DNA of 64,000 nucleotides from Yuukianura sp. NJ FZ-2021 (taxonomy: Eukaryota): NCBI GenBank assembly GCA_046563655.1, contig CM102283.1, forward strand, positions 6,448,001 through 6,512,000, given 5' to 3'. The notes beneath the pieces were generated by a model. The model made no database searches and was not told where the DNA came from. It saw only the letters and a program-made list of their open reading frames with translations. Each line of letters opens with the position of its first letter. Position 1 is the stretch's first letter. This document shows positions 2,636-26,586 of this stretch, in pieces. Both the position numbers and the translations under genes were made by a program.

Positions 2636-4324
2636 ATGGCCACCGGAACCATTCACCTGGGCCATTTCCAAAACCTACCTCCAGAAGTAATTTCTAAATT
2701 TTGTACATAATATGAAATAAATTTCAATTAACTTTAATTTTTAAATTTGTAGTTACTCGAAATGGTATTCAAACACTCAGATGCTACTGCCCTTGCGCAA
2801 AACCGATCCGTGTGCGCCTACTGGTGTAACACCATTGAGTCCATCTGCACAACTCGGCTTGACATGACAAATTCCAACTGGGAAGCATATGTCAAGATGT
2901 CCACCGCATCAAAAATACATCTTAAACTGAAAAATATCCAGTACCCCATCTACATTGTTCCGGAATTCGACGACTTCATGTCTCGTGTCAACAGTATGGA
3001 AGTTACTGGATTCATTCCAGAGTACAATGTCATCAACATTTTCAACGGATGTCGAAAAGTCAAGTCAGTCTACATCCACCATGTGCAATGCGATAGCACT
3101 GCAAGCCTACTTAAATTCAACAATGAGAAGAAGGATTTGACCTTTGAATTGACAGAATTGACCGTTGGAAAATCAAAACATCAAGAGACGAAACTGCGTG
3201 ACCTGCTGCTTGTGGCTAACCATGTTAGCGCTCTGCTCAAATTCAATTGTTTAAAGGAACTCAACCTCAGTAAAATTTTCAAAGTTGAGAACGTCTTGCG
3301 ACTGATTTTCGTCGAAATTCTTGAAGGTCAAGCACCCAATGACTACGAAGATAAAGTCGTCAAACGGATTCTCGACGAGCAACGTAAATCACTCCAAATC
3401 ATAAGATTTTACTACAAACACGATAAAGCTCCCCCGCCGAGGCATCTTGAATTCTTCATCAAATTCCATCCGTTACCAGAAAACGCAGCATCATCTTCTT
3501 CCATTACCACTTCAACAAATCACGGATTTCAAATTCTTCAAGCGCGCTTATATCGTGTTGAAGATTACCTCGAGGGTGGGGAATTTACTGGATTACTGCT
3601 GCGGATTTTTGAAACGCAATTCAGAATGAAAAATTTGCAGATTTGCTACAGAAATCAAACAGATTTGGATCAAATTGTAAAAATCGTCAAAAACAATTCG
3701 GGAACATTGGAGCAAATTGTGATTGGATCAATGGAGAATACAGAAGGGACTTTCCGTTCTTTCAGTTGCGCTTGTTTTGCAGAATGTTTGTTCTTGAAAA
3801 AACTGTTTCTCTGCTCAGAGAATCCAATAAGTCGGAAAATCAAATTGCTGGACCTCTTGCATCTTCCGACGTGTTTGGAAAAATTGTTACTTATTGGATT
3901 TATCCCAACTGGATCGTCGGAACTCTTCGGTAGAGTCACTGAGTCATCGCAGTATCCAAAGTTGACCGTAATGCTACTTGGTCATCTCCCTTGGTTTATT
4001 CAAGATGGAAACCCAATCACAGTTTTTGAAAATACGCAAATTCGTTGGCTTCTAAATATGTTTCCCAAAATTCGAAAACTGACTCTCCTTGGACCTCGGA
4101 TTGACCGATTCATAACGGTTGAAACAGCAAATGTCATGGGCATGGAAAACATTCCTGATTCAATTTCACCTGAATTTGTGACATGGTGTCGCCAGGGTGG
4201 AGGAGACAATGTCAAAATCGATTCAATTCAAATCTTCGGAGAGCATGAGGACGACCCGCTTCCAGAATTTAATCCCCTCATGGAAACTGGGTGCAAAATA
4301 ACTATCGGAAACAGCCAACACTGA
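2636..4324 (+). CDS. F-box/LRR-like protein, paralog 2 (exons 2636-2686, 2753-4324)
   Basis: MATGTIHLGHFQNLPPE | intron 2687-2752 | LLEMVFKHSDATALAQNRSVCAYW. Colinear with paralog 1 over its full length. Confidence 0.85.
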
Positions 4325-10259: not shown

Positions 10260-11917
10260 ATGGACAACACTGACCAAGGATATTTCAAAAACCTACCTCT
10301 CCAAGTAACTCAAATCTTTCGTTGAAATTTCAAACTAACTAATTTTAAATTTTTAAGTTACTGAATGCAATCTTCGCATACTCTGATGCTACTGCCCTTG
10401 CGAAAAACCGAATTGTCTGCGCATACTGGCGCAACACCATTGAAACCATGTACACAACAAGAATGGAAATGAACAATGACAACTGGGAAACATTTGTGAA
10501 GAACTCAACAGCATCCAGGATCCATCTTACACTGAACGCTCTCCAGTACCCCATTTACATTGTTCCAGAATTCAATGACTTCATGTCTCGTGTCAACTTT
10601 CTGGAAGTGACTGGATACATTACCAAGTACAACCTTGTCAACATTTTCAAGGGATGTCCTAAACTCCAGTCACTCACTGTCCACCCTGTTCAAGTTGATG
10701 GCCGTATACAGTTCGAGTTCAAAGATGAGACAACTGAATTGGCACTGGATGTGAGCCAATTGAAGATTGGGAATCTTGGTCAGTCTTACTTCCACTATGA
10801 CTATTTGGGACTTCTTTATGTGATCAACCATGTTGGCGGTGTGCTCAAAGTCAATTGCTTGAAAGAACTCAACCTGAGTATGGTTTTCAACGTTGAATGC
10901 GTTTTAGAATTGATTTTCGCTCGAATTCTTGAATATCCGCTACGCTTGGAGAAACTAGAAGATTCAATCATAAAGCGAATTCTGAACAAGCAACGTCAGT
11001 CCCTGCAACTCATCACGTTTGAGTACAAACACGGTGAGGTTCCGCCAGAATTTTTTATCAAGTTTCATCGTTGCGCAGACGCGTCGGAGTCTCCTGCCAA
11101 CACCAATTCAACCAATCAGAGACTTCAAATTTTTGAATCCCACTTGTTTCGCGTGGAAAACTATTATGTCTGGTTTGGATTCACTTCATTACTGCTGAGA
11201 ATTTTTGAAACGCAGTTCAAAATGAGAAATTTAGAAATTTCTTACAGTCATCAATTAGATTTGCACCGAATTGTCAACATCGTCAAAAACAATTCCGAAA
11301 CATTGGAAGAAATTTTGATTGTATCAATGGAGCACATCGCAGATACCTATCGCCCATTGAGTTGTGCAATGTTTGCAACCTGTTTGAGCTTGAAAAATCT
11401 AACTCTCTGCTCAAGCTATGACCATCGGAAGGTCAAATTGGTTAACCTCTTGCGTCTTCCAACTTCTTTGCAGAAATTGTCACTCAGTGGATTTGTTCCA
11501 AAAGGATCGTCGGAACTGTTCGGAGTCGCTGGAACATCGAAGTTTCAGAACTTTACCGAAATTGACCTGGGCATGCTCCCGTGGTTCATTCAAGATGAGA
11601 GCCCTGTCACAGTTTTTGAAAATACACATCTCCATTGGCTGCTGAATTTATTTCCGAGAATCCAAAAACTAACTCTGACAAGCATTCAGCCTGAACGATT
11701 CGCTACTGCCCGGGAGGCAAATGCGATCGGCGTGGAGAATATGGCTGACGCTGTTTCACCTGAATTTGTCGCGTGGTGTGAGCAAGGGGGAACAGACAAT
11801 GTTAAAATCGACTCAATTCAAATTTCCCGCCGCAACACCACCAACCAACTACTACGCGAAGTTGAGCACTTGATTGAAACGGTGCACAAAATACTTATCG
11901 GAAACAACCAGCATTGA
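10260..11917 (+). CDS. F-box/LRR-like protein, paralog 3 (exons 10260-10304, 10358-11917)
   Basis: MDNTDQGYFKNLPLQ | intron 10305-10357 | LLNAIFAYSDATALAKNRIVCAYWR, in frame with ORF 10448-11917. Confidence 0.85.
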
Positions 11918-12720: not shown

Positions 12721-14385
12721 ATGGGAACAAGCTCCAGTGACCAACGACACATTCAAAACCTTCCTGAACATGTAACGCTAAATGAAAATTAATTAAAATC
12801 ACAACTAAATTTACAAGTTACTTTTTAACTTTAGCTACAGACCAAGATCCTTGTACACTTGGATGCATCTGAACTTGCTCAAGCCCGAGCCGTTTGTGTC
12901 TCCTGGCGCAAAGCCATAGAATCTCGGTTTCCAACACGTCTGGACATGTACAACGGCAACTGGAGAGCATTTGTCAAAAGGTCAACAACATCCAATATTC
13001 ATCTAAAGCTCGTTTGCGTCCAGTTTCCCATATACTTGGCCCCTGAATTCAAAGACTTCATGAGTCGCGTCAACATTCTGGAACTGACTGGATACCTGCC
13101 AGACTACCTTCTCTTCAACGTGCTGAATGGATGTCGCAAACTCCAGTCCATTACTATCAATCATGCCACATGCGAAGGTTATTATTCAGGTCGTGGCGAA
13201 ATTGAGTTTCATGGCTCGAATGTTGACGTGACCCAATTGAACATTGGACAGCCAAAGAATGGCGAAGATATTGAAGACTTTAGTCCGGTCACTTCTATTG
13301 CTCTTCTTTATCTCAAACCCAATTGTCTAAAGGAATTGAACCTCAGTTCGTATTTCGAAGTTCAAAACACTTTGCGTTGGATTTTCGCAAGCATTTTTGA
13401 ACAATCAGAACCTGATGATGGCTTGGAAGATCTATTGGTTACAAAAATTCTGCCGGAACATCGTCAATCCCTACAACTCATAAACTTTAATTACAAAAAC
13501 GGTCCAGTCATACCTACTTCGCGTAGAGTTTTCATCAAATTCCATCCACACGCAGACGCAGAAGGAAGTCCATCTGAAAATTTGACCAATCAAATACCTC
13601 AAATTTGCGAATCAAACTTATACCACTCTAGTAATCGCTATTTTGATCGCCGCGGACTTACTGAAATACTGTTGAAAATTTTTGACACGCAGTTCAGAAT
13701 GCATAATCTGGACATTTATTACAGAGATCAATCAGATTTGGATCGAATTGAAAATATCATCAGAAGCAATTGTGGGACGTTGGAAGAAATTACAATTTCA
13801 TCAATGGAGCTTGCGAAAGACACTTATCGCTCATTGAGTTGCTCATGGTTTGCAACGTGTTTGGCCTTGAAGAAACTAACACTTTGTGCAGACTATGAAA
13901 ATCGGAAGGTCAAATTGCTTGACCTCTTGCTACTTCCGACTTCGTTGAAAAAGTTGTCTCTCAATGGATTTATTCTGACGGGATCTTCGGAACTGCTCGG
14001 CGTAGTCACTGAACCATCGCAGTATCCGAACTTGACCGAAGTGGTATTGGGCCAGCTGCCTTGGTTCATTCAAGATGGAAACCCAGTTACAGTTTTTGAA
14101 AACACGCAACTCCGTTGGCTGCTGCACTTGTTTTCTAAGATTCGAAAACTGACACTTAAAGAACTTCCGATTGACCAAGTCGTGTCGGTACAGCTGGTGG
14201 CAGATACCATAGGTTTGGACAATATTCCAGATTTGGTTTCCCCTGAATTCGTGAATTGGTGTCGCCACGGCGGAGACGACAATGTAAAAATCGAGTCAAT
14301 TGAAGTTTCGCACGACCAGCCAAATGTGTTTCGTGGTCGTCGCTTCACTGTGTATCAAATATTTATTGGAAATCACCAACACTGA
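12721..14385 (+). CDS. F-box/LRR-like protein, paralog 4 (exons 12721-12771, 12835-14385)
   Basis: MGTSSSDQRHIQNLPEH | intron 12772-12834 | LQTKILVHLDASELAQARAVCVSWR. Confidence 0.85.
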
Positions 14386-16202: not shown

Positions 16203-17851
16203 ATGGATACTGACGCTAATCACAAAGGATGCTTAAACAACCTACCTCCCGAAGTAAGAAATCAAAACCTAATCATTTGTGTTAAATTAACTGTAATTAA
16301 CCTTCAACTTTTTAGCTGCTGAATATAATTTTTGGATACTCGAATTCAACCGACCTTGCGAAAAACCGGGTTGTCTGTGCCTACTGGCGCAACATCATTG
16401 AGTCTACTCAAACTACTTCCTTGGAAATGGACAACAACAATTGGGAAACTTTTGTCAAGAAGTCTACTGCACTCAAGATCCATCTGAAACTAAAAAATGT
16501 CCAGTTCCCAATATACCTAGCACCAGAATTCTGCGACTTCATGTCTCGCGTCAACATTCTGGAGATCACTGGCTTCAATCCAGAGTACAATGTCATCAAC
16601 ATTCTCAAAGAATGTCGCAAACTCCATTCACTCACCATTGATCATGTGAAGCTTGACAGTCTGCGACGTCTTGACAAATTCAACCTTGAGGCGAATGAGG
16701 TGAATCTTGATTTGAAACAATTGAAGGTCGGATACGCTCGGCGTCACTTGAAGCATACGCAAGACCTTCTTTTGGTGACTGATTATGTTGGCGCTCTGCT
16801 CAAATCCAATTGCTTGAGTGAACTCAACGTGAGTAGTGTTTTCGACGCCAGAAAGGTTTTTAAATTAATGTACAGTGGAGTTTTTGAAGAAGAGCCACTT
16901 GACCAGTTGAGAGACAAAGTCCTGCAGCGGATTCTGAATCGACAACGTCAATCCTTGCGACTCATCAGATTTTGCTACAGAATTCACGACGAAGTTCCTG
17001 GAGCGCCTCCTCAGTTCATCAAATTTCATCCGTATGACGACGCAGCAGACATAAATCCGGCCAATCACAATCCACAAATCTTCGACTCATGCCTCCATGT
17101 TTTTCGACACAATGAATATCGTGGACTACTTTTGAAAATTTTTGAAACGCAATTCAGAATGAGAAACCTTGATATTTACTTCTCCGACCAGGCGGATTTG
17201 GACCAAGTTGAAAATATCATCAAAAACAATTCGGCAACATTGGAGGAAATTACACTTGGATCAATAGAAGACACTTATCGTTCCCTCAGTTGCGCATGTT
17301 TTCAAGCATGTATTACCTTGAAGCAACTTACACTTCAGACTTTCAGTCGGAAGGTCAAATTGTTTGACCTCTTGCTTCTCCCGCCTTCTTTGGAAAAGTT
17401 GTCTCTTACCGGATTTATTCCAACTGGATCGTCGGAACTGCTCGGCAAAATCACTGAACCGTCGCAATTTCCGAACTTAACCGAAGTGTTGCTGGGTAAG
17501 CTTCCGTGGTTCATTCAGGATGAGAAACCAGTGACAACTTTTGAAACTACGCATCTTCTTGGATTTCTGAACGTGTTTCCAAAGATTCGAAAACTGACGC
17601 TTATGTGCATTCGGCCTGAGAAATGGATGTCGGTAATAGATGCCAATGCTATTGGCATGGAGAGGCCACCACGTCCTGTTTCACCTGAATTTGTGACATG
17701 GTGTCGCCATGGTGGAGGAGATAATGTTGAAATTACTTCGATTCAAATTGTCGGTGACAACGGTATTGACGGCAACCAGCTACAAGGATATGGAGTTTTT
17801 GGCAACGGTAAAATGGTACATGAAATATGTATCGGAAACGCCCAACACTGA
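16203..17851 (+). CDS. F-box/LRR-like protein, paralog 5 (exons 16203-16253, 16316-17851)
   Basis: MDTDANHKGCLNNLPPE | intron 16254-16315 | LLNIIFGYSNSTDLAKNRVVCAYWR. Confidence 0.85.
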
Positions 17852-20144
17852 AGATAAATCTGTTCAAGCTCAATTTACATCAATCTGCTTCAACGTTTTT
17901 TTCGATTCTTGAATTTCCTAAATTTTTTAAAGAATTGAGCATATTAACATTTACTTTTTCAAATAAGTTAAATCATCTATTAGTTCACCTAATTCTATTA
18001 AAACAGAGTGAATAAAAATGCAACCTTAATTTTCGAAAACTAGGATTTAGTTTATAAAAAAAATTAGAAATTTTGCTTGCTACAGATTCGGTAGAAGTTC
18101 GAAAAAATTTTTTGTATGTATATTTATATGTTTTTAGATTTACTTGCTGTTTTCAAAAATTCAAAAGTACCTTTTTTCGATTTTCTGTGAAGCCGTAGTA
18201 AGTTTCCGAGTTGGTATTCCTTTTGTTCGTAATTTTTCTAAAGTAATTAAAATTAGGCGTGTCGTATTACTATGTTAGATGTATTCTTACTTTTTCTGTT
18301 TCTGAAATATTTTAAGCCGTTGCCTTTTCACATGTATAACCCAACCGAGCATGGTACGGAAAATAAACCACAACGCTTTTTTGCCACTTGAGACTAAAAT
18401 ATGTGTTAATTCAACGCTCAAAACGAAGATGCAAAAAAGAAAGCAAACTCCGCAAGCCACAAAAATTGTCTGGATGTTAGACGACAATTTAACAGGATAG
18501 ACCCTATTGGTGGCCTTGTGTGATAAACGAATGACGTCATGTTTGTCTATGGTTGGTTGAATTCGACGGTGCCATTTGGTCCAATGCGGGAGTATTCCAG
18601 ATTGCATCAGAAGATGAAATTGACGGTACATGCGAGCGGTGGCAGCTCGATGAAAATGAGGCAAAATGAAACCGTCCCACATCTTGAAGATTTCGGACTT
18701 GCCTGTTTTATAAGGCCCATGACCCATCTCGTCACCAATGGCCATGATGATGGCCAGTTTGTCGTCATAGTCAATGTACCCCACATTGTCACAGGATTTG
18801 GTCAGGTTAACAATATTTTCATAGTACGATCTGAGGCTTTTTTTGTTAACGGCCGATGTATGCCGTTTCGCGTTTCTACTTTGGGCTACAATAATTCCAT
18901 AAACAAATGGTTCCGGCGTGGTGGTGACAGGCTGCTTCAAAAACTTGTTGCTGGACACAACCAGTATCGTCTCACAGTAAATTGACGAATCTCCATGCGG
19001 TAGCCAAACTAAGCGTTTTTCTCGGTAAGCACGATCGAGCATTTTGACTCTAGCATCTTCGTGGTTATACGTGCAGAATCCCGGAGGCATTTTTGTCGGA
19101 ATAGATAGGTTCATCCTTTCAAAGACATTGCGCAGTACGGAACAATTTTGGCGTCCACTGCCAGAGTACTCACTATCCCAATCAGAGCAAAGGAATCCAT
19201 TCAGTCTGGTGATTTCTGCGTTGAGTTCCGGGTAACAAAAGCAATTGCGTAGATTTGTAATGTAATTCCAGTCTTGCCCATACGGTTTAAGAACGTTTTC
19301 GTTCTGCTCAACTAAAGCCTTGTGCATGTCGATGTAAAGTTTTGGGACATAGAATACAAATCCGGGCATTTCTGTGACGTTGACATGCGTCCCGGTGACA
19401 TTTGTGGGAAGTGTTAACTCTGTAGTAACGATTCCTTTGTAAGCCCCAGCTAATACAATCATGAGAAGTAGCCAGTTTCCAAGAACAAGCTTTGTTGCTC
19501 GCATTGCCGCTGGAAAGTGTCGTAGACTACGTGGAAAGCTTTCGGCAATGTCAAATGTGGCGGCGACATTATAGAACAGAACTTCCTTCATGAGTTGGAC
19601 GTTTTGTCGCCACGTGGCTGGCGGTGCCAAGCTCCATTTTCTGTATAATAGTACCAGAAAAGGAAAAATTACCAAGATACAAGCGACATAGAGGAGCCAA
19701 GTGGCCGTATCGTACGGTGCAATGTAGAACGATAAACTTAGTCGCCGATGAACTCCGTCACAGGTCATAAAGTTCATCCACCGCTTCCCGACTATTAGTA
19801 CAGACTGATGTACGCGGTATTGGTCATGCAGAAATGACGCGGAGCTGAGCTGTTTTACTTGAATGTAGTTTAACGTATTGGCGTTTTCGTTTTTGAGTTG
19901 TGCAACCAATTTTTCCAGGGGTGCAATACCGTTTGGCGAAAAAAACCAAAGGTCAACTCCTTTCAACAGAAGCCATTGAGTCAATACTTGGATATTCATA
20001 AAATAGACTTGGCGTTTTGACCTAGCCGGTGACCCAATGTACATGTGCAGAATGTCCTTGAAATGATGAAACCGCGGGTCATTTTGAAATGATCTATTTC
20101 TGTGCAACTCTGTTGTTGCCGCTGCGCAGTTCTTGCTGTAGTGG

Positions 20145-20492
20145 TGTAGCGGCCTTGTCCCTTTCCCCCAGTTTCCCCCCATTCGTCATTGGTTAGTTAG
20201 TTAGTAGGAGGAGGAGTTTAGCTTTTCGTTTTGCCTGCTACACGGACTGCGATCCGTGTGAGCAGTTCAGTTTCAGTTAGTTTAGTGAGTCTTCGTTTTG
20301 CTTTCTGCGAGTTAGCATTGTTGGCCAAGAGCCAGGTTGTTTTGTGGAGTCAATAAACTCCACAACCATCACTACGTTCGTTTGTTGTTTCGTTTATTGT
20401 CTTTTCGTTTTCCTGGAGCTCGGGCCTTCAGCCCCGGAGAGTAGTCTGGTTTTTTGGAGGGTTTTCTGGTGTTTGGTAGCCGTAGTGCTACA
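20145..20492 (+). repeat. 5' LTR (348 bp)
   Basis: Direct repeat of 23109-23456 with no differences found by eye; TG..CA ends. Confidence 0.95.
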
Positions 20493-20495
20493 AAG

Positions 20496-20506
20496 TGGCG
20501 ACCGTG
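20496..20506 (+). promoter_or_regulatory. Primer binding site, complementary to a tRNA-Arg(UCG)-type 3' end
   Basis: TGGCGACCGTG lies 3 nt after the 5' LTR and is the complement of CACGGTCG-CCA. Confidence 0.8.
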
Positions 20507-20822
20507 CAGTGACTCCATAAGGAAACGAAAGGTCAAGTAGGTCAAAGTTATTGGCCTAAAAATCCAAACTTGACAGTTTGGTTTTGTGGATGTGAAAAGA
20601 AGTCGCGGGAGTGCGGCTTCCTGGCTATAGTGTATAGCACACCGACTGAACAAAAAGCAGAAACGAGAGTTGCAGAGACTTTCAATTCCAGAAAGTTCCA
20701 CTCAGTCAACACAGGAAAGTCGTAGTCACGGCTCTTCCTGCCATTACCTAAGAAGTCAAAACAATAGAATACCCGTTGCCGGGTCATCTCCGTTATCGAT
20801 TCAGTCTTCGTTGCCATTGGTG

Positions 20823-22067
20823 ATGATGGCAACATACACAAAAGCAGAAGTGGATGCCATGGTGGCTGCTGCGGTGGCACAGGCAATGGCTACGGTGGAT
20901 CAAAGAATTGCACAGGCAGTCGCAGCGGCGGCTCCTGTCCCACCAGTCCCGCAGAAACAAGCGATTGACCCTACGGAAGCATTGGTTGCAGCATTAAGAA
21001 CAGTAAAATTGACAACGGTCACATCTACTATAAAAGTGCCGACATTTGACCCTAAAACGATGTCGGCAGTCGGCTTCTTGCGGGAAGTCGAAAGATACTT
21101 TGTCATGCAAGGTCACGAGGTCAACCAGTATCTCTACCTAATAAAATCTGTCTTGCCGTCAGAGTCACAGTCGTGGCTTGACTATGTCCTGACAGCGGTC
21201 GTTGACTGGGAAGAGTTCAAGGACGAATTTGCAAAAAGATATGACAGTTGGGTAGATGCAAATGAGAGAATGCGTCTACTCCATAATCGTGAGCAGAAGT
21301 TGAATGAACCCGTGGAGAGTTTCATTTATGACATGATCAGGAATTCAAGATTAGTTTTTCCTGACGAAACTCTCTCACAAGCCACGCGGAGGGCAAAGCT
21401 CGCCCTTTACCCAAGGTTACGGACGGCCTTAGGTACATTGGAGTACGTGACTCCAGAAGCGTTGTTTGAGGCTGCAAGAGTTGCTCATGTAAATCTCACT
21501 GAAGAGAACGAGCTTAACAAAGATAAAATTCAATTACCTCCGCTGATAATAACGGAGACACAAGAGACAGAGACAGACAAGAAGGAAGATAAGCCATCAG
21601 AGAAGGAGACAGAAGTTACAAAGCAAGATAAGGAAGCAGAAGTCATTGAGAATGGCTTCAGAAAAAATGATTGGCGTGGAGAACGACAGTTTTACAGACA
21701 GAGTCAAGCGGATGCCGAAACACATACGCCGTCATCAACTCAAGGTCAAGCTCAAGATCAATCCCAAGAGCAAGTTCCAGACCAAAGTCACAGTTCCACA
21801 GGAATTAACATTAATTTGCCTATTCGCGGGACCACAGGCCAAGGCAATGGACGAGGTGGAGTTCAAGGTCTGGGTCAAGCAACTACAAGACCACCAGATC
21901 TTAGCAACGTCAGTTGCTATCGTTGTACGGGTATTGGACACCGTCAATTTGAATGTCCATCGGCAGTGGGAGCAGCGATGGCAGCATTTGGAATTGAAGT
22001 CGAAGTTCCGGCTTCAACTTCCACTCAAGGTCAAGGTTGGGGTCAACCTCAGCACGAGTCATACTAA
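20823..22067 (+). CDS. gag: Retrotransposon Gag (capsid + CCHC zinc knuckle), 414 aa from the first ATG
   Basis: Capsid-like VPTFDPK..FLREVERYF..W..DWEEFKDEFAKRY..REQKLNEPVESF, and knuckle CYRCTGIGHRQFEC (CX2CX4HX4C). Confidence 0.88.
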   Translation: MMATYTKAEVDAMVAAAVAQAMATVDQRIAQAVAAAAPVPPVPQKQAIDPTEALVAALRTVKLTTVTSTIKVPTFDPKTMSAVGFLREVERYFVMQGHEVNQYLYLIKSVLPSESQSWLDYVLTAVVDWEEFKDEFAKRYDSWVDANERMRLLHNREQKLNEPVESFIYDMIRNSRLVFPDETLSQATRRAKLALYPRLRTALGTLEYVTPEALFEAARVAHVNLTEENELNKDKIQLPPLIITETQETETDKKEDKPSEKETEVTKQDKEAEVIENGFRKNDWRGERQFYRQSQADAETHTPSSTQGQAQDQSQEQVPDQSHSSTGININLPIRGTTGQGNGRGGVQGLGQATTRPPDLSNVSCYRCTGIGHRQFECPSAVGAAMAAFGIEVEVPASTSTQGQGWGQPQHESY

Positions 22068-22512
22068 GCAATGGAAATGAACCTTAGTCCATTTTCCCAT
22101 ATTCAAATTGACAAAGGAAGATTCACTGGAAAAAATTAATTATTTTCTTAGAGTCAAGGTCATTGGCTCTTATAAACTGTGGAAGCTCACAGTTAAAAAT
22201 GTAAATTGAAAATTATACTTCTGTTGGTTAGCAGAAGAATGCATAGTTATTAAAAAGTGAAGTCGATGGTGTTCGGCTTCACCTCAAGGTCAGTGTCGGT
22301 GACCTAAGGAAGGAAAGAAGCTTCATTACGGAAGGGGATTCAAGGATTTTTGTGTTCATCAATGGCCATGGTGTTACAACTATCAGATGTCCATAGTTCC
22401 GGCAATGAAGAACGAAGCAGCAGAAAAGGTACACTGCGGTGACCTAGTAGTCGAGGGCGTGGCCTTGATACGTCACTGAGTCACGTCTCTCAGGCTCCCG
22501 TGCGCGAGCTTT

Positions 22513-22833
22513 CATGTTACCAGTTCCGAGGAATTCGGCTTAACATAATCTACAGCTGCATCGTCGGAGGAACATGTTACCAGTTTTTACCTAACGCGGT
22601 TCAACAGTTACTCAATTTCATAAAAAGTCGCAGTGGCGGCTTCCTTCAAAAATTCTACATACAAAGGAGGAAATGTAGTTTTCACGAACGCGGTTCAACA
22701 TTACTCAAAAAATTCATGAAAAGTCGCAGTGGCGGCTTCCTTCAAGATTTCGGTCATTTTGGGAATGGAGAGATCATATGAGAACATGTTACCAGTTTGA
22801 CACAACGCGGTTCAACAGTTACTCACAAATTCA
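22513..22833 (+). repeat. Imperfect direct repeats in the element's 3' non-coding region
   Basis: CATGTTACCAGTT x3, AACGCGGTTCAACA x3, AAAAGTCGCAGTGGCGGCTTCCTTCAA x2. Confidence 0.8.
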
Positions 22834-23108
22834 AGCATTATCAAAAAGCCAACGTTTTGGCTAAAATTCAAAATTAATATAAGTTCAAGTCAGAACTTAT
22901 CATCAAAAACCACTTTCGGATCGAGAGGACATTCCGATGGAGATTGGACTTTGCTGTGGTGACATTGGGATTCGGATGGAGCAATTCGGAGGAGATCACT
23001 GACGGGAGAAGCAGAGGACCGGCATTTCCAAGTCCGCTTTCCAGAGGTCGAGGTCATGGAGAAGTTCGACGAGGATGACCCCGCCAAACTTCTCTTCAGG
23101 CAGGAAGA

Positions 23109-23456
23109 TGTAGCGGCCTTGTCCCTTTCCCCCAGTTTCCCCCCATTCGTCATTGGTTAGTTAGTTAGTAGGAGGAGGAGTTTAGCTTTTCGTTTTGCCT
23201 GCTACACGGACTGCGATCCGTGTGAGCAGTTCAGTTTCAGTTAGTTTAGTGAGTCTTCGTTTTGCTTTCTGCGAGTTAGCATTGTTGGCCAAGAGCCAGG
23301 TTGTTTTGTGGAGTCAATAAACTCCACAACCATCACTACGTTCGTTTGTTGTTTCGTTTATTGTCTTTTCGTTTTCCTGGAGCTCGGGCCTTCAGCCCCG
23401 GAGAGTAGTCTGGTTTTTTGGAGGGTTTTCTGGTGTTTGGTAGCCGTAGTGCTACA
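23109..23456 (+). repeat. 3' LTR (348 bp)
   Basis: Direct repeat of 20145-20492, preceded by a polypurine tract. Confidence 0.95.
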
Positions 23457-24942
23457 GTGGAAGTTGTTACACCCAGAATAATTACCAGGAACAACTATCA
23501 ATCCATCCAGAAATGGCTCCATGATCTTGTCAACCTTGGATCTACATGATGACCACTCCATTGATTTATTGTGACACGATCCAATTTCCACTTGGTGTGA
23601 CAATTTCGCAAATCCGAAAACCATAAAAACATTAGAGTACGGTACGTTACGAAGGCTCATGGTCACATTGATTATCTCATAGTAACTGGTATTTATACGC
23701 TCCCGTTTGGCGTACTGCCGATACACATAATGCGCCATGAACATGTTTTGCCTCGGTAATACATCGTATATTTCTGGTGGTTCATCTGTAATCAGTTCCC
23801 GATATGAGTCGTTCAACAGTACATTGACGTACATGTACCGGTAGGCTTCCGGATGCGGGTAATATGAACGGAAAAAGTCCTCAAAACCATGTATGTGAGC
23901 CAACTTCTTTGTCGGATATACTATGAACATTGCAATTGAATAATTACTTTGTCGCCATGACCTGTGAACTCGGAATCCCGGAATTGGTCGGTCAAGTATC
24001 ATTGATGGTACAGAAGTAATTGGTCCCACATCAACTTGGTAGCTGGATGTTTCGATTTTCAGGATAAAAACTTCTGAGTCTGCGTATTCTGCTACGAGGT
24101 CATCTACACCTTCAAAAAACTTCACTTCTTTGGTTTCCGATAATACAAGAAGATGGGCAACAATGACGAGTAGGATTTTTAGAAACTCCATTTTTTTAAA
24201 TTCAATGTTTGGTTCAAGAACTTTTTCTTGAATTATGCTGTGGGTTGACTTTGTCATTGCATTGGACTGAAAATCTTTTTATCTATTTCAAGACAACAGA
24301 ATTCCGGAGAGAAGGCGGGGACATGCAATGAAATTTGAATTATTAATTATAATATTTTCAATTGGTAAAATTGTTTTTGCATGCTAGAAAATTTAGATTT
24401 TGACAGGCGATGCAGTGACCTTTTGACCTTTAGCTTTTTTGATGCTTCTAGCGAAATAACCATGGAGTGGATTTTGTAAAATAAATTTAGATTTTGGAAT
24501 TTTCAGTAACAGATTTAGGCATAGTTTGAATTAAATCTTGACAGTCTATTCGTCTCGTCATTTAACAAAATTTGGAAAATGATTCTGCATTTAATTTCAA
24601 AATGTTGCGATGTGTTGTCAAGGAAATGGTATTTCCGGATTGTGAATGTTGATTTAGATTTCAACAATCGCGAGGTCTTTGGTCTCTTCTGTGGAAATTT
24701 TTTTTGAACCAATTCCGAAACGCTGAGTTGACCTTGCGAAACAATTGTGGATGTTTTGACTATTTGACCCATAATCTTTGGCCATCTTTGATCAAGCTGA
24801 ATAGTTTTGAAACGTATTTTGGAATATAAACTCGGATCCTGTATGTACTACGCCTTGCTTATTGCCGCTATAAGCTGTAATAGAATCAATTCAATAATCT
24901 TTGTTTCCGTTTATTGTTTGAAGATTTGTACGCAACTTCAAA

Positions 24943-26586
24943 ATGGACACCAACAACGTTAACCAACTGAACCTTCACAATCTACCTCCCGAAGTAACCT
25001 ATGCTTTGAATTTAATTAGCTGCGCTAAAAATTAGGTTTAAATGTTGAAGCTTAACTTATAAATTTCTTTCTAGCTACTCACACAGATATTTGGGTACTC
25101 GGAAACAGCCGAGCTTGCTCAAAACCGAAACGTTTGCGCCCGTTGGCGCGACATCATTGAATCCAACTACATCACTCGAATGGAAATGTACGACGACAAC
25201 TGGGAATCTTACGTCAAAAACTCTACTGCTTCAAAGATTCTTCTTAAACTTAACGATGTTAAGTTCCCGATCTACCTTGCTCCAGAATTCGACGACTTCA
25301 TGTCACGCGTCAAGATTTTGGAGCTGACTGGCCATATTCCTGTGTACAACGTCATCAACATTCTCGGAAGTCGCAAACTCCAGTCACTCACTGTCAATGA
25401 TGTCTCATTGGACAACTATCGCCGTCTGGGAAATTTCAAAATTTTTGAAAATGAATCGCGGTGTCATCTGACTCAACTGAACATTGGACAACCAGATTCT
25501 GAAAACGAATTCGACCTTGCTTTGATGATTTGTATTGTCTCCACTCTACTCAAACCCAATTGTTTGAAGGAGTTGAACATTGCTACAAGCTTTTTTTACA
25601 ACTTCAAACCACAACATGTTTTGCATGCGATTTTCGCGGGAATTTTTGAAGGAGAGTCCGTAGAGTCGGAAGGTATAATCGAACCGATTTTGATGAAACA
25701 ACAGCGATCTCTCCAATTGATAGGCTTTAGTCTGCCTGTGCATGATCGTTCTGAACGCGAGGAACCAAAGGCGTTCATCAAGTTCCATCAGTACGCAGAC
25801 GTATCAGTACCTCCTGCCACTACTGCTGCCGATCCAACCAATCAAGAACCTACAACCTATAAGCTACCTGAAATCCACGAATCAAGCTTATATCTTCTGG
25901 ACCACTTTCGTTTCAACGCTACTACCTTTATGGAATCACTACTACAAATTTATGCTGCACAGTCCAAGATGAGGAATCTGGAAATTTGTTACAAGACTCA
26001 AGCACATTTGGATCAAATTGGAAATATCATCAGAAACAATTCAGAAACATTGGAGGAAATTACGATTCAAACCGAGTCTAGAGGATATATTTATCCGTAT
26101 CAGTCGTTTAGCTGCTCGAGTCTGCCACCATGTTTGAAGTTGAAAAAACTAACACTCCAAGTAGAGGAGCGAAGCGATGTGGTCACATTGCATGACCTCT
26201 TGCGTCTTCCGACTTCTTTGGAAACGTTGTGTCTTACTGGATTTGTTCCAACTGGATCGTCGGAACTGTTCGAAGTCCCCGGAATATCGCCATATTCGAA
26301 CTTGACCAAAGTCGAGCTACGTATTTTCCCGTGGTTCTTTCTGGATGGAAATGCAGTTGAAGTTTTTGAAGCTACTCATCTCAGTTGGCTTTTGAACTTG
26401 TTTCCGAAAATTCGAAAACTGACGCTCTACCTCAGCGAGCATTCAGACGACGACGATGTGCCTGATCCTGTTTCACCTGAGTTTGTGAAATGGTGCCTCG
26501 AAGGTGGTGGAGCCAATATGAAAATCGATTCAATTAAAAGTTGTCGCGGCGCTCATGAAATTTTGATCGGCAGTGACGAACAGTGA
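24943..26586 (+). CDS. F-box/LRR-like protein, paralog 6 (exons 24943-24993, 25075-26586)
   Basis: MDTNNVNQLNLHNLPPE | intron 24994-25074 | LLTQIFGYSETAELAQNRNVCARWR. Has the most divergent C-terminus of the six. Confidence 0.85.

Follow-up and report, generated by a model that had tools for sequence, protein, structure and literature searches.

A young gag-only LTR retrotransposon and its probably still mobile Ty3/gypsy family in the arthropod Yuukianura sp. NJ FZ-2021

The genome of the arthropod Yuukianura sp. NJ FZ-2021 contains a low-copy family of LTR retrotransposons that carry a gag gene and lack pol. We interpret it, with a probability of roughly three in four, as a long-lived and still mobile non-autonomous Ty3/gypsy family whose own Gag acts in cis and whose enzymes come from a helper. 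The family combines LTRs, a primer-binding site (PBS), a polypurine tract (PPT), loss of pol, repeated insertion with 4-bp target-site duplications (TSDs), and a gag gene under purifying selection. It is a new arthropod Ty3/gypsy example of the gag-only layout; the layout itself is not new. The copy described here (the window copy) spans positions 20145–23456 (3,312 bp) of the window, by which we mean the whole 64,000-nt stretch of DNA that was analysed (assembly GCA_046563655.1, contig CM102283.1, positions 6,448,001 to 6,512,000). Coordinates refer to this window, and features lie on its plus strand unless stated otherwise.

The window copy is a real, very young insertion. Its 348-bp LTRs (20145–20492 and 23109–23456), with TG..CA ends and an AATAAA at LTR position 208, are identical at 348 of 348 positions, and the element is flanked on both sides by the duplication GTGG (20141–20144 and 23457–23460). 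Together with an empty site in three of four public runs, this bears out the original prediction, made from the sequence alone, of identical LTRs, a perfect 4-bp TSD and a fresh insertion. The same prediction described the PBS and PPT as intact, which holds in full for the former: 11 nt (20496–20506) are complementary to the 3' end of tRNA-Arg(TCG), a pairing composed of 8 nt of the genomic tRNA-Arg(TCG) gene plus CCA. The spacer between LTR and PBS measures 3 nt, versus 4 nt in the second full copy, on C4 (see below). The PPT (AGGCAGGAAGA, 23098–23108; 10 of 11 purines), which adjoins the 3' LTR, is present but weak.

The insertion lies within a minus-strand open reading frame, of which an N-terminal part of 244 codons (23460–24191) and a C-terminal part of 618 codons (18287–20143) flank the element, and which at the empty site is a single 891-codon frame. 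A Pfam search of the host gene part gave no match. In the Atlas, the larger part is placed at 0.96 with unnamed arthropod clusters and at 0.92 with an ionotropic-receptor cluster, 12% of whose members carry PF00060, and we read the interrupted gene as a probable divergent arthropod ionotropic receptor. In three of the four runs (two samples, two studies), contigs cross the empty site and leave out 3,316 nt, the length of the element plus the TSD; the insertion is therefore not fixed. The window copy is also a knockout allele, still segregating, of this chemoreceptor-like gene.

The element belongs to a family and is not a one-off deletion. A genome search with the whole element returned 19 matches, all of them short copies, solo LTRs or fragments, and a search with the LTR and leader returned 14, adding nothing new. 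Full copies number two. The one on C4 (3,313 bp) is collinear with the window copy and 93% identical to it, carries an intact gag, has a single 1-bp indel as the sole difference between its LTRs, and is flanked by AGTT where the window copy has GTGG, as anticipated for a mobile family with multiple copies of about 3.3 kb. A 5'-truncated copy on C10 has the same pol-less 3' region at 91–94% identity, and two older 3' fragments, also pol-less, are 76–82% identical. The remaining whole-element matches include three solo LTRs (90, 88 and 74% identity; TSDs GGGT, CGTA and AACT), one of them split by another element, and further LTR fragments. At all five sites having both ends, the TSD is 4 bp long.

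These data bear on the suspicion that the window copy arose from an autonomous element by one recent loss of internal sequence, or that it is an artefact of assembly. The low copy number, with only two full copies, would fit such an origin. We nevertheless consider it scarcely credible: the two full copies are 7% apart, yet have the same layout, near-identical LTRs and separate TSDs, and the layout and the empty site are both confirmed by independent contigs. One contig matches positions 21973–22299, which span the end of gag, exactly and with 0 differences; a contig from a second study is collinear with the window copy from 21432 to 22646 and likewise pol-less. Because independent contigs carry the same pol-less layout, assembly collapse is an unlikely source of it. 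Of the two outcomes that had been named as fatal to the proposal, neither was found: there is a second full copy in place of a lone one, with no near-identical full-length parent found, and the layout recurs outside the assembly.

Gag had been described as an uninterrupted protein of 414 aa, and the frame is indeed free of stop codons from the ATG at 20823 to its end (20823–22067, including the stop). The frame, however, starts about 60 codons earlier. It is open as far upstream as 20631, and an in-frame N-terminal extension (20646–20822) resembles the N-termini of autonomous Gags, with shuffle p-values of 0.002–0.038 in eight of eight comparisons. These 60 codons begin with a methionine codon in the C4 copy and with a near-cognate codon (20646) in the window copy, and all indels between the two copies within this stretch preserve the frame. 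From the open upstream frame, its Gag-like N-terminus and the C4 methionine codon, the family Gag is probably about 473 aa long, 414 aa being the product from the first ATG of the window copy. The single CCHC zinc knuckle of the nucleocapsid (21915–21956), another element of the prediction, is recognizable by zf-CCHC at E = 0.002, a value under the Pfam curated cut-off. Pfam matches of Gag to zf-CCHC, Arc capsid and Retrotrans_gag are all weak and beneath these cut-offs. A profile built from 31 related capsid regions, on the other hand, matched Arc at E = 1.5e-13. We modelled Gag from an alignment (mean pLDDT 88), a single-sequence model having reached a pLDDT of 40, and Foldseek with the alignment-based model returned four matches at E ≤ 0.001, all of them Arc or dArc1 capsid structures.

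The predicted two-lobed Ty3/Arc-type capsid domain (20964–21545), which a structure comparison puts nearer to Arc than to retroviral capsids, places the window copy by ancestry in the Ty3/gypsy lineage, judging from the model; having no pol gene of its own, it is not an autonomous member. Descent from the vertebrate retroviral lineages of Bhikhari or MaLR was rejected on account of the gypsy-order pol of the relatives described below and the Arc-nearer capsid. The fold is one that the family Gag has in common with the domesticated capsid genes Arc and dArc, and the predicted link to Arc stands as shared ancestry of the fold. It goes no further, as the element here is mobile and polymorphic; an Arc-like domesticated gag gene was rejected because the window copy has identical LTRs, a TSD and an empty allele in three of four runs.

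Downstream of gag, the predicted ~1 kb of non-coding DNA ahead of the 3' LTR is confirmed as a region of 1,041 nt (22068–23108), with 10, 10 and 16 stops in its three frames, a longest frame of 112 codons, and RT, RH, IN and ORF3 undetectable. This pol-less region starts right at the end of gag in each full copy, and also in the contig from the second study. It had also been said to contain a degraded pol remnant, which our searches do not sustain: for pol or ORF3, blastp of the three frames and a nucleotide blast with a word size of 7 gave nothing significant, and the best i-E with profiles of 9 pol, 6 ORF2 and 7 ORF3 sequences was 0.25. Without correction, two of 20 anchored tests for a pol remnant gave p < 0.05; both concerned the window copy, and the C4 copy gave none; in the window copy alone, the first 50 codons after gag faintly match a protease N-terminus in an anchored test. 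A pol remnant in the window copy is thus at most a possible vestige. The region also contains imperfect repeats (two to three units, spaced 94–117 nt, around 22566–22825), in which Tandem Repeats Finder detected no tandem array and a search for structured RNA gave z = −0.85.

With two full copies, selection could be assessed on a single pair. Between the window and C4 copies, gag shows a dS of 0.151 and a dN of 0.046 (dN/dS 0.31; Fisher p = 7e-7). For capsid residues 47–235 the ratio falls to 0.21 (p = 1e-5), and for the N-terminal part to 0.27 (p = 0.009), while the linker (0.55, p = 0.28) and the NC tail (0.40, p = 0.15) are separately not significant. The gag ORF differs by one indel (3 nt), the 3' region by 13 indel events, eight of them single-base. 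Autonomous gags have ratios of 0.08 and 0.12, compared to which that of the family is higher (Fisher p = 0.0006 and 0.018), so that constraint on the family gag is partly relaxed. As the pol-less layout is common to both copies, the comparison supports a loss of pol before they split and a capsid that has apparently been constrained ever since. The earlier claim that pol was lost long before this insertion agrees with the 3' region lacking pol common to copies 76–94% identical and with the gag dN/dS of 0.31. A skeptical reading would be that the open frame only shields the RNA from decay or holds ribosomes, the protein being irrelevant, and there is a precedent in the same genome, where the ORF2 of a second clade of short elements has stayed open for 370–544 codons at a dN/dS of about 1. 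That reading is largely refuted by the capsid ratio of 0.21 (p = 1e-5), which denotes constraint on amino acids, and the gag of this second clade is constrained as well (0.18–0.39 in three of three pairs); we consider it extremely improbable.

The two copies also differ in how their parts diverge. Synonymous divergence of gag (dS 0.15) is higher than that of the non-coding parts (0.06–0.09), which may reflect constrained cis signals or gag exchanged with a deeper lineage. The LTRs differ at 4/345 positions, the non-coding internal DNA at 93/1359 (p = 6e-6). Moreover, the LTRs group the window copy with the C4 copy (4/345 versus 11/341 and 12/339 to C10), whereas the 3' region groups C4 with C10 (13/592 versus 27/592 and 26/588). 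Although the counts are small, these mosaic copies suggest recombination among family members, as in co-packaged RNA pairs; gene conversion is a possible alternative source of the pattern.

We searched the genome with Gag for relatives that carry pol, scoring 101 of 129 candidates and obtaining 89 matches. The 40 stretches of 10 kb that were examined, with the two family copies, comprise all of the best 35 of these 89 matches. The nearest elements with pol measure 7.9–8.1 kb, have gag, pol and a third ORF, and fall into three families: A (L051, L053, L054, L055, L056, L065 and L072), B (L058 and L059) and C (L050). Their pol order is PR-RT-RH-IN, that of gypsy, in both of the two pol ORFs scanned, and ORF3 encodes a 3'-5' exonuclease rather than an envelope (PF01612 in three of three and HRDC in two of three tested). 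A DEDDy exonuclease ORF3 is also described from the rotifer elements Juno and Vesta (PMC5408684), unlike which the window element has lost ORF3 along with pol. Several A–C elements have LTR pairs that are 92–100% identical and so were recently active. In a quick tree of 28 rows and a careful capsid tree of 22 rows, the latter omitting 12 of the 28 (mostly near-duplicates and three outgroup rows), the window and C4 copies group together with good support, on a long branch that lies outside the A–C clade.

The original prediction had proposed looking for a helper with the same LTR and PBS, and only the second half of this was found. The window copy has a PBS core of 9 nt in common with families A, B and C, its terminal 8 LTR bases (GTGCTACA in family A) with five of nine pol-bearing elements compared, and its 5' LTR tip TGTAG with two of nine. 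Global LTR identity to all nine is 53–56%, with no family standing out, and the LTR, whole-element and Gag searches of the assembly found no close autonomous parent or helper with the same LTR. Capsid identity to families A–C is 54–61%, with 61% the highest value after the family's own copies among the best 35 of 89 matches; the closest outside protein to the family Gag is 60% identical. A close autonomous parent could still be hidden, segregating or collapsed, mobilizing the short form and accounting for part of the selection on gag through recombination. Such a parent would suit a gag dS above the non-coding divergence and the mosaic copies, it could lie beyond the 101 of 129 candidates scored, and the same possibility has been raised for Bhikhari-1 (PMC12067270) and coffee TR-GAG1 (PMC4350172) in the cited accounts. 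We regard it as unlikely, given that none of the 14 LTR-and-leader or 19 whole-element matches is more than a short copy, a solo LTR or a fragment, that capsid identity ends at 61% among the best 35 of 89 matches and at 60% outside, and that the pol-less region directly adjoins gag in all three sequences described above.

In our preferred reading of a non-autonomous family served by a helper, the family RNA would be translated into Gag, and Gag would bind its own RNA in cis, an advantage that would be the reason why selection retains the protein. We infer cis binding because gag-defective copies would otherwise ride free and selection would fade. RT and IN enter particles as Gag-Pol, the PBS and PPT are required for priming, and LTR tips are read by integrase. 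Protease, RT and integrase would be provided in mixed particles by a pol-bearing gypsy family with an exonuclease ORF3 in the same genome, and these helper enzymes would copy and integrate the family RNA. The candidate helpers use the same primer tRNA and, in family A, have the same last 8 LTR bases, despite capsids that are only 54–61% identical. A bolder version, which we put forward tentatively and expect to fail somewhat sooner than to hold, is that of a generalist 'capsid-only parasite', long parentless and drawing Pol from gypsy families with capsids this distant (54–61% identity). If true, capsids would be mixed across families, or foreign Gag-Pol would be packaged. How far cross-recognition by capsid and integrase can reach becomes testable here, since no close helper was found.

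No arthropod gypsy family restricted to gag turned up in the literature searched, which did not extend to Repbase and most subscription papers. CM-gag of Culex is reportedly gag only. Non-autonomous LTR families described from Culex are non-coding (PMC3286476). The statement that gag-only families are known mainly from plants overstated the novelty of an animal example, given the gag-only Bhikhari (PMC12067270) and the pol-less, gag-related MaLR (PMC11359688). Plant TR-GAG elements, as described in PMC4350172, resemble the window copy in being shorter than 4 kb, with LTRs, a PBS, a PPT, one gag ORF and no pol; like the family here, they occur in several copies with differing TSDs, and for TR-GAG1 a similar autonomous element was not found. 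They differ in having a 5-bp TSD, compared to 4 bp, an arthropod host and a low copy number here. The family may work like TR-GAG, yet is not filed as TR-GAG, the TSD being 4 bp versus 5 bp. In sugar beet, 28 families are reported with GAG/PROT domains alone, and many domain-carrying families are without a recognizable partner (10.64898/2026.03.01.708851).

According to PMC11302176, wheat RLG_Quinta is likewise an old gag-only gypsy lineage, with a Gag diverged from that of its helper RLG_Cereba, with which it has its PBS and LTR termini in common, and with recombination between its sublineages. For RLG_Quinta a single partner can be identified, with parts of the LTR conserved, and its copies at centromeres number in the hundreds (PMC11302176), whereas the family here has no standout partner, an LTR identity of 53–56%, and no extra domain. 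In vertebrates, Bhikhari-1 and -2 of zebrafish and ENS-1 of chicken are similar in being recently active, with gag, without pol or env, and in that the reference genome yielded no helper (PMC12067270); the accounts consulted give Bhikhari-2 a gag and neither pol nor env, and find pol in no Bhikhari-1 copy (PMC12067270; PMC13269885). These are vertebrate endogenous retroviruses with a demonstrated host role and hundreds of insertions (PMC12067270), whereas the family here derives from Ty3/gypsy elements and nothing points to a host role for it. The mammalian ERVL-MaLR elements, as characterized in PMC11359688, are also widespread LTR elements without pol or env and with gag homology; they differ in belonging to the ERV-L lineage, in being extinct or mostly decayed, and in their huge copy number (PMC11359688).

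Beyond this family, the genome contains a second clade of gag-keeping short elements. It includes five elements with LTR pairs (3.3–3.8 kb; LTRs 95–100% identical) and three related short copies for which no LTR pair was recovered. They retain gag (with a frameshift in L067 and only in part in L085), mostly together with a long frame of gutted pol. Gag dN/dS is 0.18–0.39 in three of three pairs, and that of the gutted-pol ORF2, open for 370–544 codons, is 0.95–1.42 in four of four. Since the second clade is nested in the A–C clade and joining it with the window–C4 pair is rejected (AU p = 0.0004; 7 rows versus 15), gag-keeping pol-less elements probably had at least two origins in this genome, unless gag exchange misleads the tree. 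Why an enzyme borrower retains its own capsid gene has been argued from intact ORFs in the TR-GAG and Quinta papers, as cited (PMC4350172; PMC11302176); here, selection on the capsid after the loss of pol has been quantified, and the second clade supplies a contrast within the same genome, its gutted pol lying at about 1 and its gag at 0.2–0.4. On the bolder reading, the origins, at least two, would also serve as natural replicates with which to ask why Gag must be provided in cis when Pol need not be, and how far co-assembling capsids can diverge.

The same recurrence could be taken to mean that the capsid is useful to the host, for example as a dominant-negative brake on related gypsy families or in development, with mobility incidental, and in zebrafish the Gag of Bhikhari, a gag-only family that is mobile, is described as needed for development (PMC12067270; PMC13269885). 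Selection at the level of the host is nonetheless quite improbable here, as the window copy is unfixed and breaks a host gene, a fixed LTR-less copy of gag is absent among the best 35 of 89 matches, and both intact copies are brand new, which matches turnover. Finally, the LTR-tip and PBS pattern of the family recurs at seven more sites, which show no DNA-level match to the element and no RT; four of them are 2.8–3.4-kb short elements of the second clade.

The focal element, a gag-only, pol-less LTR element derived from Ty3/gypsy (20145–23456), has inserted into a divergent ionotropic-receptor-like gene on the minus strand (18287–24191; intronless, 891-codon frame), which is thereby knocked out in the window haplotype. 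Alleles of this gene lacking the insertion were found in public runs. Surrounding the insertion is a local array of six paralogous intronless ORFs of 503–526 codons, all on the plus strand (243–1820, 2753–4321, 10349–11914, 12835–14382, 16316–17848 and 25075–26583), whose N-termini are alike and look F-box-like when judged by eye.

Among related stretches of the same genome, a second, separate clade of short gag-keeping elements (L060, L061, L062, L064, L067 and L085) comprises elements of 3.3–3.8 kb, in which the gutted-pol frame 3' of gag is uninterrupted over 370–544 codons, yet shows a dN/dS near 1. Four young elements of 2.8–3.4 kb (L102, L103, L104 and L107) share the LTR ends of this clade and have only traces of gag or none; they represent one more stage of decay toward non-coding elements. 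Three further relatives (L057, L070 and L071) carry gag and integrase without a recognisable RT part, with L057 measuring 6.3 kb and having LTRs that are 99.7% identical. These three represent other partial deletions and may still be mobile.

The pol-bearing gypsy relatives (family A: L051, L053–L056, L065 and L072; family B: L058 and L059; family C: L050) possess a third ORF of 600–690 aa located 3' of pol. This ORF3 contains a DEDD-type 3'-5' exonuclease domain (PF01612), in some cases together with HRDC, and its dN/dS values of 0.17 and 0.21 indicate purifying selection. Families A and B have a 2-nt spacer between LTR and primer-binding site; in the focal element (20493–20495) the spacer measures 3 nt and in the second full collinear copy of its family (the C4 copy) 4 nt, differences that integrase end processing seems to tolerate. 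A solo LTR of the focal family (L092, 5056–6812) is split by roughly 1.4 kb belonging to a different element, the frames of which, by eye, look like BEL/Pao pol.

In X4, a public sequencing run from a second study, high-depth contigs compared with 21432–23138 of the window carry the 3' half of the focal element, and before 21432 they end in sequence unlike it. Depth over the capsid part is low, and this pattern, in which depth does not equate to copy number, possibly reflects a further-deleted variant that has multiplied in the material of that study.
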